64,000 nucleotides of DNA, from positions 425-64,424 of the forward strand of contig JAFGXP010000045.1 of the NCBI GenBank assembly GCA_016936535.1. Direction: 5' to 3'. This DNA comes from Thiotrichales bacterium (GTDB lineage Bacteria > Pseudomonadota > Gammaproteobacteria > Thiomicrospirales > Thiomicrospiraceae). The notes below the pieces were generated by a model that saw nothing but the letters and a program-made list of their open reading frames with translations, was not told where the DNA came from and did no database searches. Positions 11,509 to 18,700 of this stretch are shown in pieces (the stretch's first letter is position 1; each line of letters starts with the position of its first letter). Made by a program: the position numbers and the translations under genes.

Positions 11509-11590
11509 GTTGCCGCCTATCCGCCAGCACCCTCTTGTTCAGTGGATGTCGGCACCCTTTTAGGCAGCACGCCGTGTCACTCCGACACTG

Positions 11591-11627
11591 ACAAAACCGG
11601 ACATTGCGCCGGTTTTGTATTTTTTTC
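11591..11627 (+). terminator. intrinsic terminator after sod
   Basis: Perfect 10-bp stem acaaaaccgg / ccggttttgt followed by atttttttc. Confidence 0.85.
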
Positions 11628-11724
11628 GATTCTTTTTCCTGTCAAAAATCCCAAAAGTCGCTTGGCAGTTACCTTTGCCATTTGTACAATCGATTTCCAC
11701 GCTTGCCGATATCAAGGATTTAGG

Positions 11725-12687
11725 ATGCCACAACTCCCCGAAACCATTTCCAGTTGGTTAACGCAAAATAAACAATACCCACATCACCTTCTGATTAATC
11801 TGCTGCTGCAAGCCAACTACACACCCGAAAACGCGGTTCTCTATTGCAAACTGTTTTTTGCCGAGGACTTTGCCGCAGATCCACACCAGGTACATCCTCC
11901 AGCACGACGCAGTGTTGAGCAAGCGCTCAGCTTAAGCCTTGCCGATTTTGTCCAAGTTTGCGCACCCAATCCAATGACCGAAACTACGCCACCGAAAGCA
12001 GACGATCTGCCCTCAGACTCCAAGCCCTTTTTTGCGCCAAACGGCGATTTTGGTCCGACCTTTCCCAATGCCCTACAAGCCGAAGGTGTGCGTTATCCCA
12101 TTACCGGTTTATGCCATAGACCACGCGCTTTTCAGGTATTGAATGTCTTAAGTGTTGAGGAGTGCCAACAACTGATTGCCGAAAGCCGACATCAGCTCCA
12201 GCCCTCAACGGTGGCAACCACCGATCAAGGGACCCAGCGCAGCGCGGTTCGCACCAGCTACGGAGCTCAATTGGCTAAGGCCGGCAGCCCATTGGTACGC
12301 AAAATTGAACAGAGACTCGCTCAGCTGTTTCACTTTCCCAGCACCCATGGAGAGCCCTTACAAATCTTAAAATATGCCATCGGCGCCGAATACAAACCCC
12401 ACCTGGACTACTTTGACCCCAAACTGTATCAAAACCAATACAGTGTGCCGCGCTGTGGCAATCGGGTGGCAACCATCATTCTATATCTTAACGAACCAGA
12501 GCTTGGTGGCAGTACAATCTTCCCTAAGGCTCAGCTTGACTTTATGCCGATTCAAGGCAGTGCCGTCTATTTTGACTACTGCAATGCCGAGGGCGAACTG
12601 GACCCAAAAAGTCTGCATGGCGGCACCCCCGTGCTAGCCGGCGAAAAATGGATTGCGACTCAATGGGTGCGTATGCAGCCTTGGTAA
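11725..12687 (+). CDS. 2OG-Fe(II) oxygenase, prolyl 4-hydroxylase (P4Hc) type
   Basis: The HxD...H triad (KPHLDYF, SLHGGTPV) and a C-terminal basic residue (KWIATQWVR) are present. Start is at ATG 11725 with SD aagga; the upstream part of the track ORF overlaps the sod terminator. Confidence 0.8.
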   Translation: MPQLPETISSWLTQNKQYPHHLLINLLLQANYTPENAVLYCKLFFAEDFAADPHQVHPPARRSVEQALSLSLADFVQVCAPNPMTETTPPKADDLPSDSKPFFAPNGDFGPTFPNALQAEGVRYPITGLCHRPRAFQVLNVLSVEECQQLIAESRHQLQPSTVATTDQGTQRSAVRTSYGAQLAKAGSPLVRKIEQRLAQLFHFPSTHGEPLQILKYAIGAEYKPHLDYFDPKLYQNQYSVPRCGNRVATIILYLNEPELGGSTIFPKAQLDFMPIQGSAVYFDYCNAEGELDPKSLHGGTPVLAGEKWIATQWVRMQPW

Positions 12688-12729: not shown

Positions 12730-13290
12730 ATGGCCAGTATTAGCCCTCCCGTTTGTGACTTCAATCAACCAGCAATCGACTTTGCCTTAACTGGCGTGGA
12801 TGGCAACCGCCACACCCTCGCCAGTGCTCGTGGTCCAAATGGACTTTTGGTGATGTTTATTTGCAACCACTGCCCTTATGTCAAAGCGATTCAAGCTCGT
12901 TTAGTTGAAGATACTCGGCAATTACGCGATGAATTTGGCGTTCACAGTATTGCCATCATGTCGAATGACGCGCACTATCGTGAAGAAGATTCGTTTGAAA
13001 ATATGCAAAAAATTGCTGAACAGTGGCAGTTCCCCTTTCCCTATATCTATGACGAAACGCAAGCAGTGGCCAAAGCTTATGGCGCGGTTTGTACACCGGA
13101 TTTTTTTGGTTATAACGCTGAGCTAAAACTGCAATATCGCGGGCGCTTAGACGCATCACGCAAGGAAACTGCACCCGCAGAGGTGCGCCGTGATTTATTT
13201 GAAGCCATGAAACAAGTCGCGCAAACTGGCCAAGGGCCTTCAGAGCAGATTCCGTCAATCGGCTGCTCGATCAAATGGAAGGCAGAATAA
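12730..13290 (+). CDS. thioredoxin-fold protein (AhpC/TSA-like thiol-disulfide oxidoreductase)
   Basis: CxxC motif CNHCPYV in a thioredoxin-like context (LLVMFICNHCPYV). Confidence 0.8.
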   Translation: MASISPPVCDFNQPAIDFALTGVDGNRHTLASARGPNGLLVMFICNHCPYVKAIQARLVEDTRQLRDEFGVHSIAIMSNDAHYREEDSFENMQKIAEQWQFPFPYIYDETQAVAKAYGAVCTPDFFGYNAELKLQYRGRLDASRKETAPAEVRRDLFEAMKQVAQTGQGPSEQIPSIGCSIKWKAE

Positions 13291-13384: not shown

Positions 13385-14050
13385 ATGCGCTTGGTTTTTT
13401 CCCTTCCTGTTCTCATCGGGCTTATGGTATTGAGCGGCTGTCAGTCACCTAAAGAGGCCAGTAAAGAGAACTTCACCAAGGTTCTCAATGACTATCATCA
13501 GCGCAACTGCGTAATGCTCTCTTCTTATGACTTCCAAGATTTCCCCATTACCATTAAGTTGCTTCCAGTTCAAAATCGCTGGGCGAACAAACAAAATCCA
13601 GAAAGGACCGTACAATACGATGTTTTGGTGGATGCGGGCCTGTTGCAAGTAAAAGACGGCGAAACACAAGATTATGAAAATGCCTTTAGCCGCACTAAAA
13701 TTACGGTTCCGACCAAAACCTATCAATTGAGCGAAGCCGGTAGCAAAGCCTTTGCCCAACAAACAGGGAAAGGCGTCTTAAGCAGCGAAGGTAAAAGAGG
13801 TTTCTGTGCCGGCTATTACCACGTCACGGAAATCAGTAATTTCTCGGAACCTGCGGCGTCGATGGGCTATACCATCAGCAATGTCAACTATCGTACAGAC
13901 CTTGAAAAAGTCCAACCTTGGGCACGGAACGCGCGCTTGCTGGAAGCTTATCCTCATTTTGCCAAGGCACTGCAAAGCCCTCAATCGCAATTTAGTACCT
14001 TAGTGCTGATGAATGATGGCTGGGTTCACGAACGCGAAATGCGCCCATAA
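13385..14050 (+). CDS. lipoprotein of unknown function
   Basis: SD aggag and a lipobox (LMVLSGC) after a hydrophobic leader. I recognise no family. Confidence 0.7.
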   Translation: MRLVFSLPVLIGLMVLSGCQSPKEASKENFTKVLNDYHQRNCVMLSSYDFQDFPITIKLLPVQNRWANKQNPERTVQYDVLVDAGLLQVKDGETQDYENAFSRTKITVPTKTYQLSEAGSKAFAQQTGKGVLSSEGKRGFCAGYYHVTEISNFSEPAASMGYTISNVNYRTDLEKVQPWARNARLLEAYPHFAKALQSPQSQFSTLVLMNDGWVHEREMRP

Positions 14051-15249: not shown

Positions 15250-15297
15250 ACCCGCTCCTTGTTTTTGATTGCAACGCAGATTTTAAAAGCCGCAAGG

Positions 15298-15315
15298 CTG
15301 TCATCAAACTGTTAT
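15298..15315 (+). promoter_or_regulatory. Pho box (PhoB binding site) candidate upstream of the btaA-like operon
   Basis: CTGTCAT-caaa-CTGTTAT against the consensus CTGTCAT-AWAW-CTGTCAY. Two weaker heptads follow in 11-bp phase (gcgTCAa at 15320, aatTCAc at 15331). The site is about 85 nt upstream of ATG 15400, in that gene's orientation. Confidence 0.55.
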
Positions 15316-15399
15316 CTAAGCGTCAACGCAAATTCACGCTGCAATCCAAGCACTTTTTTAAGATGAGAAGCGTTTTTATCTCATTCATCAAGGCCGTGT

Positions 15400-16656
15400 A
15401 TGAACAGCACCACTCTCGAAAAACCAATTAAAACCAAATCTCTGCTGAACAAAGCGGTTATCAATAGCTCCTTTTTCAGCCGTAAAGGCATTTTAGACCG
15501 TTTGTTTACCGCTTGGTTTGACCGCTTAGTCTATCCGCAGATTTGGGAAGATCCTGAAGTGGACATCGCCGCTCTCCAACTCAATGCTGATTCACACATT
15601 TTCACCATCTCTTCTGGGGGCTGCAATGCCCTAAACTACTTGAGCTGTCATCCGCAATCCATCACTGTGGTCGATTTAAACGAAGCGCACATTGCGTTGA
15701 TTCAGCTCAAGCTGGCGGCAGCACGTTTTTTGCCGGATTCGCAAAGCTTTTACGCCTTTTTTGGATACGCCAATCAGGCGAATAACTTGGCACTGTATCA
15801 ACGCTATCTCCAACCGCATTTAGACGCAAAGACCCGCGCCTATTGGGAACAGAAAACCGGTTGGCATCGCAAGCCACGGATTGCCCTCTTTACACAGGGA
15901 TTTTATCGCTTTGGTTTGCTGGGCCAATTTATCGGCCTCACCCACTGGGTGAGTAAGCGTTTAGGCTATGACCTTAGCGCAGTGATGCAAGCAAAAAATC
16001 TTGAAGAACAAGCGCAGCTCTTTGAGCAGCACATTGCCCCAGTCTTTGAAACGCGTCTGTTACGCTGGCTATGCAAACAGCCAATCGTGCTCTACAGTCT
16101 AGGGATTCCACCCTCGCAGTTTGCCGAAATGGCGCAAGACTCTCAACAGCAACAACAGGGAATGCACCAACTGCTTAAAGAGCGCGCTCGTAAATTGGCC
16201 TGCGACTTTCCATTACAAGAAAACTACTTTGCCTGGCAAGCTTTTGCTCGTCAGTATGATCACGTTGAGCGCTCTGCTGTGCCTCGTTATTTACAAGCCA
16301 AACACTTTGCTACCCTTCAGGCTGAAGTTAACAAAATCAGCGTGTTCCACCAGTCAATGACCGAGCGTTTGGCTGCTATGCCAAATCAAAGCCTGAACGC
16401 CTACTTATTACTGGATGCTCAAGATTGGATGGATGCTGGACAACTGAACGCTTTATGGCAGGAAATTGACCGTACTGCCAAACCAGGTGCACGAGTGGTA
16501 TTCCGAACCGCCGGCCGGCTTTCGCCTTTGGAAAGCAAACTCAGCGCCGAGCTCTTGGCAAACTGGCAAACCAATGCAGAAGCGAATGCACAATGGAGTG
16601 CGCAAGACCGTTCCGCCATCTATGGCGCGGTCTTTGCCTATCAAAAATGCGTTTAG
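15400..16656 (+). CDS. BtaA-like protein (DUF3419; family of SAM:diacylglycerol 3-amino-3-carboxypropyl transferase)
   Basis: Contains YPQIWEDPEVDIAAL and FTISSGGCNALNYL, the hallmark N-terminal region of the BtaA/DUF3419 family. Its 418 aa is similar to BtaA in length. Confidence 0.8.
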   Translation: MNSTTLEKPIKTKSLLNKAVINSSFFSRKGILDRLFTAWFDRLVYPQIWEDPEVDIAALQLNADSHIFTISSGGCNALNYLSCHPQSITVVDLNEAHIALIQLKLAAARFLPDSQSFYAFFGYANQANNLALYQRYLQPHLDAKTRAYWEQKTGWHRKPRIALFTQGFYRFGLLGQFIGLTHWVSKRLGYDLSAVMQAKNLEEQAQLFEQHIAPVFETRLLRWLCKQPIVLYSLGIPPSQFAEMAQDSQQQQQGMHQLLKERARKLACDFPLQENYFAWQAFARQYDHVERSAVPRYLQAKHFATLQAEVNKISVFHQSMTERLAAMPNQSLNAYLLLDAQDWMDAGQLNALWQEIDRTAKPGARVVFRTAGRLSPLESKLSAELLANWQTNAEANAQWSAQDRSAIYGAVFAYQKCV

Positions 16657-16667
16657 GTTTTGACACC

Positions 16668-17765
16668 ATGAGCCCAGAAGTGGTGCCAAATTACGCAAGC
16701 TTGCGCCTCGTGCATTTGTTTAATCAGTTTGCGCCTCGACAAGCCATCCGGAATTTGCAAACGGAGCTGGAACTATTCCAGCACAATGGCCGCTGGTTTC
16801 CGTTGACCCGCAATCAAACCGAATATGACAACAGTTACATTTGTTCGTTTTACACCGCTTATGTGGCTTATGCTCGCGCCGAGCTCAGTTTGATTCAACA
16901 ACCCTTACAACGCTGGGGCCTGCATAAAACCAGCTATTTAGCGGCTTTGATACTGCGTCTGGCACGGATTAATCAAACCGTTTGCTTGAACAATTGGTTG
17001 TTCTCTACCAACCCGATGCACTGGCTCAGTGCTGAAGAAATGCGTGAAATTAGTCAGCGTTTAGTACAGCAAAATCCGTTTCATAATTTGAGCATTCGCT
17101 CGCTGAACCGGCGTCACAATAGCGAATTCATGACCCATCTCGAACAACAAGGTTGGTTATTGATTCCGGCGCGCCAAGTCTATCTGTTTGCAAAAGATGG
17201 GGATTGGCAGACGCGCAACAATGTCAAAAATGACTGGCGCTTATTACGTAAAACGCAATTGCAGCTGCGTCACCCCCTTCAGCACCAAGCCGAAGACTTT
17301 ACCGTCATTGAACAGCGCTTTCGTCAACTATTCATTGATAAGCATTCCGCTTTTAACCCGCAATTCAGCGCCAATTATCTTTACGGATTACATGAACAAA
17401 AACTGTTGGAGTTTTTCAGTTTCTGTGATGCGCAAGGCCGCATTATGGCAACACTCGGTGTTTTTACGGAGAACGGCATTATGACCGCACCCATTGTCGG
17501 TTATGACACCGAAGCCCCTAAGCAGCTTGGCTTATACCGTCTCGTTATTGGCCAGCTGCTTAAACTGGCCGCTGAACGCAAATTAGAACTCAATTTAAGT
17601 GCCGGTGCCGGCGAATTTAAACGCAATCGCGGCGGCGAAGCCGTCATTGAATACAGTGCGTTTTACTGCCGCCATTTACCGTGGATGCAGCGTCAACTGC
17701 TCAGTGGCTTTGCCAAACTGCTTAATCGTTATGCCCCCAAAGTTTTTGCCGAGAATCCCTTATGA
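16668..17765 (+). CDS. GNAT-fold (FemAB/CelD-like, probably double-GNAT) acyl- or aminoacyl-transferase, function unknown
   Basis: The C-terminal block IVGYDTEAPKQLGLYRLVIGQLLKLAAERKLELNLSAGAGEFKRNRGG resembles Acetyltransf_6/FemAB-like domains; this is a by-eye judgement. Start is ATG 16668, 12 nt after the btaA-like stop. An alternative ATG at 16647 would overlap that gene by 10 nt. Confidence 0.6.
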   Translation: MSPEVVPNYASLRLVHLFNQFAPRQAIRNLQTELELFQHNGRWFPLTRNQTEYDNSYICSFYTAYVAYARAELSLIQQPLQRWGLHKTSYLAALILRLARINQTVCLNNWLFSTNPMHWLSAEEMREISQRLVQQNPFHNLSIRSLNRRHNSEFMTHLEQQGWLLIPARQVYLFAKDGDWQTRNNVKNDWRLLRKTQLQLRHPLQHQAEDFTVIEQRFRQLFIDKHSAFNPQFSANYLYGLHEQKLLEFFSFCDAQGRIMATLGVFTENGIMTAPIVGYDTEAPKQLGLYRLVIGQLLKLAAERKLELNLSAGAGEFKRNRGGEAVIEYSAFYCRHLPWMQRQLLSGFAKLLNRYAPKVFAENPL

Positions 17766-18700
17766 ACGCTGAAAACCCTCATGTCCTTGCGGCACTGCAC
17801 ACTTTGTCCGATCCGGAATGGCTCAATCAGACGCTACACGAAGAGTCCCACGCAAATCCACAGAGCGCCTATTTAAGCGATGAGACTCCGAAGCGTTACC
17901 GAACCCTTTGGATTTCTGACTGCCATCTTGGTTCAAAAGGCTGCAAAGCCGAGTTTCTGAGCGACTTTCTCAAACGCCATGATTGCGACAAACTGATCCT
18001 CAATGGCGATATTATTGATGGCTGGCGAATGCGCAAGAAGATTCATTGGCCGCAAAGCCATACCAATGTCATCCGAAGGATTCTGACGCGCGCCAAACGG
18101 GGTACTCAAGTGATTTACATTACCGGCAACCATGATGATTTATTACGCCGTTACTCGGGGATTGATTTTGGCAACATTCATTTAGTGGACGAACATCTGC
18201 ACATCACCGCTGATGGCAAAAAATTGTGGTGTGTGCACGGAGACCAATTTGATGGTGTGATTCAATGCCATCGCTGGTTAGCCTTTGTTGGCGATTTTCT
18301 TTACGAAACCGTTCTCACTTGGAATCGCTGGTTTAATAAGGCCCGTGCCCGCTTAGGATTTGGTTATTGGTCGCTGTCCGCCTATCTCAAACATCGCGTT
18401 AAACGCGCCGTTAACTTTATCTCTGACTTTGAACAGGCCGTCGCCAAAAGCGGCCGCCAGAAAAAAATGGACGGCGTGGTCTGCGGCCACATCCACCATG
18501 CGGAAATTCGCGAAATGGAGGGCGGTATTATGTATTACAACAGCGGTGACTGGGTTGAATCCTGTACCGCACTGGCTGAAGACTTTGACGGCCAAATTCA
18601 CCTGATTCGCTGGATAACCATCGACCATCAAACTCAAGCCGGCCATGAACCGCATTCCGAGCGTGCCCACCTCATTGAACCCCTGAAGGTTAAATCGTGA
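17762..18700 (+). CDS. LpxH-like calcineurin-type metallophosphoesterase, probably PlcP-type phospholipase C rather than true LpxH
   Basis: Motifs DCHLG, GDIIDGW, GNHD, HGDQFD, GHIHH and GDWVESCTA are present. The ATG overlaps the stop of the preceding gene (ATGA at 17762-17765). Confidence 0.8.
   Translation: MNAENPHVLAALHTLSDPEWLNQTLHEESHANPQSAYLSDETPKRYRTLWISDCHLGSKGCKAEFLSDFLKRHDCDKLILNGDIIDGWRMRKKIHWPQSHTNVIRRILTRAKRGTQVIYITGNHDDLLRRYSGIDFGNIHLVDEHLHITADGKKLWCVHGDQFDGVIQCHRWLAFVGDFLYETVLTWNRWFNKARARLGFGYWSLSAYLKHRVKRAVNFISDFEQAVAKSGRQKKMDGVVCGHIHHAEIREMEGGIMYYNSGDWVESCTALAEDFDGQIHLIRWITIDHQTQAGHEPHSERAHLIEPLKVKS

Follow-up and report, generated by a model that had tools for sequence, protein, structure and literature searches.

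A putative phosphate-starvation operon pairs a BtaA-family protein with a predicted Fem/MprF-like transferase in a sulfur-oxidising marine bacterium

Three co-directional, tightly packed genes in a sulfur-oxidising marine bacterium (Thiotrichales; assembly GCA_016936535.1, contig JAFGXP010000045.1) form an apparent Pho-box-controlled operon, in which the first enzyme of betaine-lipid synthesis is followed by a tandem-GNAT protein where the usual methylase would be. This arrangement predicts a phosphorus-free membrane lipid, and we found no description of such a pathway in the searchable literature. The genes lie at 15400–18700 of the 64-kb stretch of DNA that was analysed (the window), and all three have the GC content of the window. 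An earlier note, made from the sequence alone, had proposed that BtaA-like, FemAB/GNAT-like and PlcP-type genes lie behind a Pho box without BtaB, and that they make an undescribed phosphorus-free aminolipid. Every element of this proposal that could be checked held, although the lipid product, the phosphate response and the absence of btaB from the whole genome are inferences.

The first gene, ORF1 (15400–16656, + strand, 418 aa), encodes a full-length BtaA-family protein, a putative S-adenosylmethionine:diacylglycerol 3-amino-3-carboxypropyl transferase. It matched the Pfam family DUF3419 (PF11899) over profile positions 4–385 of 385, with E 4.2e-105 and 352.5 bits against a cut-off of 28.2. 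ORF1 is 60–74% identical to Thiomicrorhabdus homologues. It is also 52% and 51% identical, over about 400 aa, to DUF3419 proteins encoded next to BtaB in two other loci, one with a classic btaA-btaB arrangement (L082) and one with a plcP-btaA-btaB arrangement (L083). As ORF1 is no closer to the proteins that are paired with a GNAT than to those paired with BtaB, this argues that the BtaA chemistry is unchanged.

ORF2 starts at the ATG at 16668 and ends at 17765 (+ strand, 365 aa), although alternative starts at 16647 and 16593 would overlap ORF1. It matched Pfam Acetyltransf_6 (PF13480; E 6.9e-7, 29.9 bits against a cut-off of 22). An AlphaFold2 model of ORF2 (pLDDT 93.6, pTM 0.91) has a tandem GNAT fold in the Fem/MprF arrangement. 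In Foldseek searches with this model the best matches, with TM-scores of 0.5–0.66, were all aminoacyl-tRNA-dependent transferases: the peptide synthases Sbb17 (E 4.4e-10, TM 0.52/0.64) and Sba18, the synthase domain of MprF and L-PGS (both about 1e-8) and A-PGS, and FemX (E 8.6e-8, TM 0.53/0.58). In contrast, acetyl-CoA tandem GNATs (VipF, Eis-like, 2wpw) were significant hits but reached only 0.3–0.45. The TM-scores are moderate. At the sequence level there was no match to FemAB (PF02388) or LPG_synthase_C, and a sequence profile found no relative among PDB chains. Only PF13480 was hit, in 12 of 20 family members, with FemAB_like (PF04339) appearing once at E 0.08. ORF2 lacks the N-terminal transmembrane flippase domain of the bifunctional MprF, as its maximum 19-residue hydropathy is 1.28 and it contains no membrane segment.

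ORF3 (17762–18700, + strand, 312 aa) overlaps ORF2 by an ATGA at 17762–17765, which reads cccttATGAacgc. It encodes a PlcP-type, LpxH-like metallophosphoesterase (Metallophos, PF00149; E 4.8e-12). Although the top nine Foldseek PDB hits for its model (pLDDT 77) were all LpxH, ORF3 falls well below the NCBIfam equivalog cut-offs for that enzyme (NF003743, 40.6 against 134 bits; TIGR01854, 27.2 against 190 bits). It is 43% identical (E 3e-74) to the Metallophos gene directly upstream of btaA-btaB in L083.

The Pho box, CTGTCATCAAACTGTTAT, is at 15298–15315 on the + strand, 102 nt upstream of the ORF1 ATG, and has one mismatch to CTGTCATNNNNCTGTCAT. It consists of two 7-bp direct repeats, CTGTCAT and CTGTTAT, separated by caaa, and is followed by weaker units in 11-bp phase (GCGTCAA, AATTCAC) up to about 15341. 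It was the only hit in the window at up to two mismatches, and at up to one mismatch about 0.07 hits are expected in shuffled sequence. By itself this statistic is weak, as 26 of 100 shuffles gave at least one hit at up to two mismatches, and it is the phylogenetic conservation that makes the box convincing. The box sits in the main conserved block of this intergenic region across nine Thiomicrorhabdus species, and similar boxes lie 60–140 nt upstream of the DUF3419 gene in eight loci. Pho-like boxes precede the pair in Undibacterium and Vogesella. The same promoter is kept upstream of plcP in T. xiamenensis, which lacks btaA-GNAT at the syntenic site. A -10-like hexamer, TAAGAT (15359–15364, + strand), lies 36 nt upstream of the ORF1 ATG, where TTTTAAGAT(G/A) is a second, partly conserved block in the alignment of nine species; its role as a promoter element is an inference.

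The linkage of ORF1 and ORF2 is conserved across genera and across two proteobacterial classes. The BtaA-GNAT pair is adjacent in about 40 loci, which cover Thiomicrorhabdus, Hydrogenovibrio and Thiomicrospira and, separately, Undibacterium and Vogesella. It is adjacent or overlapping in 14 of 15 Thiomicrospiraceae genome loci, in T. immobilis, T. arctica and T. aquaedulcis, in Undibacterium (where the ORF2 relative is 32% identical, E 1e-50), in Vogesella and in 21 metagenome loci. In the betaproteobacterial branch this pair is the only conserved neighbourhood. In a neighbour-joining tree, the BtaA-linked ORF2 homologues fall on one side of the midpoint root, apart from the other members. Searches by tblastn with two BtaB proteins gave no hit in the window or in the genome loci at E<=1e-3, and none in the 80 metagenome loci at E<=1e-6, so the absence of BtaB holds only for the window and for flanks of 5–8 kb.

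These comparisons refine the proposal of the earlier note in two ways. First, the conserved core is the two-gene pair of BtaA and GNAT, rather than all three genes. PlcP is a frequent but dispensable neighbour, absent in T. marina, Hydrogenovibrio, Undibacterium and Vogesella, although plcP stays adjacent even when inverted, in three loci. Second, the wider family of ORF2 mostly sits in a quite different operon, so the fold alone does not fix the acyl or aminoacyl donor.

What might this operon do? We tentatively propose that it is controlled by PhoB and replaces phospholipids with a phosphorus-free lipid under phosphate starvation. In this scheme, ORF3 cleaves the phosphorylated headgroup from phospholipids and releases diacylglycerol, ORF1 transfers the 3-amino-3-carboxypropyl group of S-adenosylmethionine to diacylglycerol to give diacylglyceryl-homoserine (DGHS), and ORF2, which occupies the gene position that BtaB holds in DGTS operons, acylates the only nucleophile of the DGHS headgroup, its free alpha-amine. 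The three activities, the order of the steps and the donor are inferred, and no biochemical data exist for any member of the ORF2 family. An aminoacyl-tRNA is the favoured donor. The best structural matches include the amine-acylating Sbb17/Sba18 and the lipid-modifying MprF domain, and ORF2 is basic (pI 9.5), with a conserved basic helix (residues 184–195, VKNDWRLLRK) and an invariant FK(318)xxRGG that includes K318 and R321. These features are a possible parallel to the basic helix that binds the tRNA acceptor stem and the catalytic Lys/Arg described as common to this class (PMC6103681). The product would then be an N-aminoacyl-DGHS, a glycerolipid with a dipeptide headgroup, in place of the trimethylated betaine lipid DGTS. 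If so, and this too is tentative, vent and marine sulfur oxidisers and freshwater betaproteobacteria would share a new branch of the betaine-lipid pathway, with what may be the first Fem-type enzyme to act on a phosphorus-free lipid. It may also relate to unassigned environmental aminolipids such as the 'butyramide-cysteine glycerols' of Desulfatibacillum (PMC11181052).

The closest rival, possible but less likely, is the same pathway with a different donor, in which ORF2 uses acetyl-CoA or an acyl-CoA/acyl-ACP to N-acetylate or N-acylate DGHS. This would convert the zwitterionic lipid into an anionic, carboxylate-only phosphorus-free lipid that could stand in for phosphatidylglycerol or cardiolipin, and such a surrogate would be expected to meet a need under phosphate starvation. 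ORF2 is a GNAT-clan protein, and by our reading the loop before helix 289–303 (KQLGLY) partly resembles the GNAT CoA-binding motif. In the sister subfamily, the GNAT is fused to, or adjacent to, an ATP-grasp ligase. This recalls the clavulanate pair of an ATP-grasp enzyme with an acetyl-CoA tandem GNAT (ORF17/ORF14), for which the ligase is apparently proposed to add an amino acid whose amine the GNAT then caps, and it fits an acetyl/acyl-CoA donor equally well. However, the acetyl-CoA tandem GNATs match the ORF2 model clearly worse than the aminoacyl-tRNA transferases, the Q/RxxGxG/A motif is not intact, and Pfam places ORF2 in the Fem-like family Acetyltransf_6, not in Acetyltransf_1/5 or the OlsB family PF13444.

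It is unlikely, although not excluded, that a btaB located elsewhere in the genome methylates DGHS to DGTS, with ORF2 having a separate role, such as MprF- or AlaDAGS-like aminoacylation of phosphatidylglycerol or diacylglycerol, or one unrelated to lipids. tRNA-dependent alanylation of diacylglycerol is known in Corynebacterium (PMC6103681), and a few ORF2 relatives, in four loci, occur without DUF3419. Against this, ORF2 holds the position downstream of btaA that BtaB holds in L082 and L083, often with overlapping stop and start codons, in about 40 loci with no BtaB within 5–8 kb in any of them. Least likely, the pair would place and then acylate a 3-amino-3-carboxypropyl group on another hydroxylated acceptor, such as a small metabolite or a polysaccharide, with its adjacency to plcP incidental: DUF3419 is a large family (5537 hits) of which few members appear to be characterised, plcP is missing next to the pair in the betaproteobacteria and in some Thiomicrospiraceae, and the sister GNAT subfamily belongs to what looks like a secondary-metabolite-type operon, but this reading sits poorly with the similarity of ORF1 over its full length to BtaA proteins of btaA-btaB operons, the Pho-box promoter that the pair shares with plcP, the persistence of plcP linkage through inversions, and the Pho-like boxes in Undibacterium and Vogesella.

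The closest known system is the plcP-btaA-btaB operon ('type 1' plcP neighbourhood) of Phaeobacter sp. MED193 (Sebastian et al. 2016, PMC4796936), with DGTS synthesis by BtaA and BtaB (Klug & Benning 2001 and Riekhof et al. 2005, as cited in that paper). It too is a Pho-box-controlled operon that combines a PlcP-type phosphoesterase with a BtaA-family enzyme, and the logic of releasing diacylglycerol and then installing a homoserine-derived headgroup is the same. Here, however, a tandem-GNAT protein sits immediately downstream of btaA in place of BtaB, plcP is last rather than first, and the predicted end product is an N-acylated or N-aminoacylated DGHS rather than DGTS. Among the aminoacyl-tRNA-dependent transferases with a tandem GNAT fold, MprF and AlaDAGS modify lipid headgroups or diacylglycerol, while FemX and Sba18 (an Orf11-type peptide synthase, as is Sbb17) acylate amines; for ORF2 the acceptor would be a phosphorus-free, ether-linked homoserine lipid. 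ORF3 shares with LpxH (UDP-2,3-diacylglucosamine diphosphatase) the calcineurin fold with a helical insertion, and public pipelines name it LpxH, but it is only 17–22% identical to solved LpxH structures, and its context and its Pho box point to PlcP-type phospholipid hydrolysis. Finally, the OlsB/OlsA ornithine-lipid and related aminolipid pathways (PMC11631085) also make amino-acid-containing, phosphorus-free lipids that are induced by phosphate starvation, with a GNAT-clan N-acyltransferase. OlsB, however, N-acylates a free amino acid with a 3-hydroxy fatty acid and uses no glycerol backbone, whereas ORF2 belongs to PF13480 and is coupled to BtaA.

The region holds three same-strand ORFs. 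ORF1 (15400-16656) encodes a protein of 418 aa. ORF2 starts at an ATG at 16668, 11 nt after the ORF1 stop, although in-frame ATGs at 16647 and 16593 would overlap ORF1, and it ends at 17765. ORF3 (17762-18700, 312 aa) has an ATG that overlaps the ORF2 stop as ATGA. Pfam assigned ORF1 to DUF3419 (E 4.2e-105, over the whole profile), ORF2 to Acetyltransf_6 (PF13480, E 6.9e-7, above the gathering cut-off, residues 182-319) and ORF3 to Metallophos (E 4.8e-12). NCBIfam has no model for ORF1 or ORF2. The flanking genes are a divergent glycerate kinase upstream, and a DEDD/RNase_T exonuclease followed by hisI downstream. The three genes have the base composition of the window, all three proteins are predicted to be soluble, and ORF2 is basic, with a pI of 9.5. 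Elsewhere in the window, an ORF at 11542-12687, whose GTG start at 11542 may be too far upstream, has a C-terminal 2OG-Fe(II) oxygenase domain (residues 273-377) behind a long N-terminal region with no Pfam match. Next to it are an AhpC/redoxin gene (12730-13290) and a putative lipoprotein with no family match (13385-14050).

A Pho box, CTGTCATCAAACTGTTAT, lies at 15298-15315 on the + strand, 102 nt upstream of the ORF1 ATG. It has one mismatch to the E. coli consensus and is the only hit in the window at up to 2 mismatches. Taken alone this is not statistically strong, as 26 of 100 shuffles give a hit at up to 2 mismatches, and about 0.07 hits are expected at up to 1 mismatch. In contrast, the comparative evidence is strong. 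Pho-like boxes on the coding strand lie 60-140 nt upstream of the DUF3419 gene in six of the genome loci that we compared (L001, L003-L006 and L015), and also occur in the loci from Undibacterium (L081) and Vogesella (L085). In an alignment of this intergenic region from nine Thiomicrorhabdus species, the box and the following units in 11-bp phase form the main conserved block, and a TAAGAT -10-like element forms a second, partly conserved block. Between the Pho-box repeats and this element (15316-15364), the window and L001 carry about 11 extra nucleotides (one helical turn) compared with seven other Thiomicrorhabdus species.

Thiomicrorhabdus xiamenensis (CP054020; L171:544-8531), the closest relative by ORF3, lacks the DUF3419-GNAT pair at the syntenic site, and the same promoter (CTGTCATTTTCCTGTTAC..., nearly identical to that of L001) now lies 201 nt upstream of plcP. 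Thus, btaA-GNAT behaves as a cassette gained or lost between the promoter and plcP. T. marina (L002) shows the opposite case, in which the pair is present and plcP is absent. In T. immobilis, plcP is inverted and has its own Pho-like box 66 nt upstream.

A protein search with ORF1 returned 5537 DUF3419 relatives. Identity is 60-74% in Thiomicrorhabdus and then falls to about 50-54% in Undibacterium, Propionivibrio and Mongoliimonas. The contexts fetched for some of these relatives showed two kinds of partner. A classic btaA-btaB arrangement was found in Mongoliimonas (L082), and plcP-btaA-btaB-Metallophos on a 1.48-Mb metagenome contig (L083), while in Undibacterium and Vogesella DUF3419 is followed by an ORF2 relative. 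Pairwise identities among these DUF3419 proteins are 45-60%, with no separation by partner. ORF1 is therefore an ordinary BtaA-family enzyme, and only the partner differs. A profile search with ORF1 against PDB chains, and a similar search with ORF3, gave no hits.

For ORF2, a search found 102 relatives, all named at most 'GNAT family N-acetyltransferase', and an exhaustive profile search found 1438 cluster representatives, 958 of them at E<=1e-30. An AlphaFold2 model built on a 20-sequence alignment is very confident (pLDDT 93.6, pTM 0.91) and shows two GNAT-like alpha/beta domains. When this model was compared with the PDB using Foldseek, the aminoacyl-tRNA-dependent peptide synthases Sbb17/Sba18 ranked first (E 4e-10, TM 0.52-0.66), followed by the MprF, L-PGS and A-PGS synthase domains, and then FemX. 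Acetyl-CoA tandem GNATs (VipF, Eis-like, and the clavulanate protein 2wpw) were significant but fitted worse, with TM 0.3-0.45. Sequence-level searches did not reach any solved structure (a profile search of the ORF2 family against PDB chains gave only chance-level hits) or the FemAB and LPG_synthase_C families. An OlsB-like N-acyltransferase was rejected because PF13444 is not hit. The family shares invariant D189, K225, Y279-D280, G288-Y290-R291, S311, F317-K318, R321 and E328, and a conserved basic helix at 184-195. A basic acceptor-stem-binding helix and a catalytic Lys/Arg are common to aminoacyl-tRNA transferases of this fold (PMC6103681), to which these features may be equivalent, although sequence motifs did not settle whether the donor is aminoacyl-tRNA or acyl-CoA.

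To examine the linkage of ORF2 to btaA, we compared 80 genome loci carrying ORF2 relatives. The 15 closest are from Thiomicrorhabdus, Hydrogenovibrio and Thiomicrospira, and 14 of these 15 have DUF3419 directly upstream. Ten also have the ORF3 homologue adjacent, which in two of them (L014, L015) is on the opposite strand. T. immobilis, T. arctica and T. aquaedulcis have the same layout as the window: glycerate kinase, DUF3419, GNAT, Metallophos, RNase_T, hisI. A scan of metagenome loci seeded with the Undibacterium protein gave 15 Undibacterium-like loci with DUF3419 directly upstream, and six more Thiomicrospiraceae-like or partial examples, three of them with plcP. In that betaproteobacterial branch the pair is the only conserved neighbourhood. 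No BtaB was detected in the window or in any of these flanks. In a neighbour-joining tree the BtaA-linked ORF2 homologues lie on one side of the midpoint root.

A few ORF2 relatives lack DUF3419 next door (loci L011, L016, L101 and L102). In L011 (347-7184) an ORF2 homologue (51% identical) lies on a plasmid-like 7.6-kb contig with a Rep3-type replication initiator, a GGDEF/EAL protein, cytochrome b561 and a HlyD-like protein. This contig is binned as a Synechococcaceae MAG, but the protein groups with Hydrogenovibrio homologues, and it may be a plasmid or a binning error. The relatives in L101 (4683-7079) and L102 (4872-10114) are orphans in high-GC organisms, one next to a GDSL/SGNH lipase and the other near a patatin-like phospholipase.

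The other branch of the ORF2 family is 34-42% identical to ORF2 and occurs in Paenibacillus, Brevibacillus, Planctomycetes, Holophagae, Opitutaceae and alpha- and betaproteobacteria. This sister subfamily (loci L017-L080, L086 and L109-L169; for example L030:2563-9041 and L039:2408-10057) sits in a different conserved operon, which is widely distributed in Firmicutes, Planctomycetes, Acidobacteria, Verrucomicrobia and Proteobacteria, and for which we found no paper. Its genes are a FabH-like KASIII, an NAD-epimerase/3-beta-HSD, an MBL hydrolase, an F390-synthetase-like adenylating enzyme, an ATP-grasp, the GNAT and a Rieske oxygenase. We looked for a DUF3419-GNAT fusion protein as Rosetta-stone evidence, but the long family members turned out to be ATP-grasp::GNAT (proteins P0355, P0404, P0475 and P0483) and GNAT::Rieske (P0431) fusions of this subfamily. 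The family's chemistry is therefore generic and is used on at least two scaffolds.

Homologues of ORF3 are 86% identical in T. xiamenensis and 55-65% identical in many Gammaproteobacteria, and all are auto-annotated as LpxH. NCBIfam aligns ORF3 end to end with LpxH, but the score is only 40.6 bits against an equivalog cut-off of 134. On this cut-off and on context we rejected the public annotation: ORF3 is LpxH-like but not LpxH. It is 43% identical (E 3e-74) to the phosphoesterase that heads the plcP-btaA-btaB operon of L083, which is the 'type 1' arrangement of Sebastian et al. 2016 (PMC4796936). Its model (pLDDT 77) matches LpxH structures as its top nine PDB hits, at 17-22% identity, and carries a long helical insertion at residues 162-233.

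What might this operon make? In the established pathway, as cited in part in PMC4796936, PlcP releases diacylglycerol from phospholipids under phosphate starvation, BtaA makes DGHS from SAM and diacylglycerol, and BtaB methylates DGHS to DGTS. Here BtaB's place is taken by a Fem/MprF-like transferase. The only nucleophile of the DGHS headgroup is its alpha-amine. If ORF2 acts after BtaA, it must therefore N-acylate that amine. All of the enzyme activities, and the phosphate response, are inferred, and we tentatively favour an aminoacyl-tRNA donor, which would give an N-aminoacyl-DGHS. An acetyl/acyl-CoA donor, giving an anionic N-acyl-DGHS, appears less likely but remains a serious rival, mainly because of the ATP-grasp partnership in the sister subfamily. 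It is unlikely that ordinary DGTS is made with a distant btaB while ORF2 does something else, given that no BtaB was detected, albeit only within the window and the flanks examined. A non-lipid acceptor is the least likely of these readings.

Replacing phospholipids with phosphorus-free lipids is a major adaptation of marine microbes to scarce phosphate, and the known surrogate lipids are few: DGTS, glycolipids, and ornithine or glutamine lipids. The operon predicts another class, made from the DGTS intermediate by a Fem/MprF-like enzyme, which would extend tRNA-dependent (or GNAT) lipid chemistry to phosphorus-free lipids. It also assigns a testable function to a family of about 1,400 sequence clusters annotated only as 'GNAT family N-acetyltransferase', and could help to assign unknown aminolipid peaks in environmental lipidomes. 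One possibly related observation is that Desulfatibacillum alkenivorans makes 'N-butyramide cysteine glycerol' lipids under phosphate limitation, to which no biosynthetic genes have been assigned (PMC11181052). A C4 unit plus an amino acid is the kind of headgroup that this module would build, and a BtaA-like step followed by an amino-acid-adding step could produce it.

The searchable literature contains nothing on a BtaA+GNAT module or on N-substituted DGHS lipids. It does contain plcP-btaA-btaB, agt-type glycolipid operons and OlsB-type aminolipids. Compared with plcP-btaA-btaB, the system found here has a Fem/MprF-like transferase in the place of BtaB, and it is conserved, widespread in one bacterial family and present in a second proteobacterial class.
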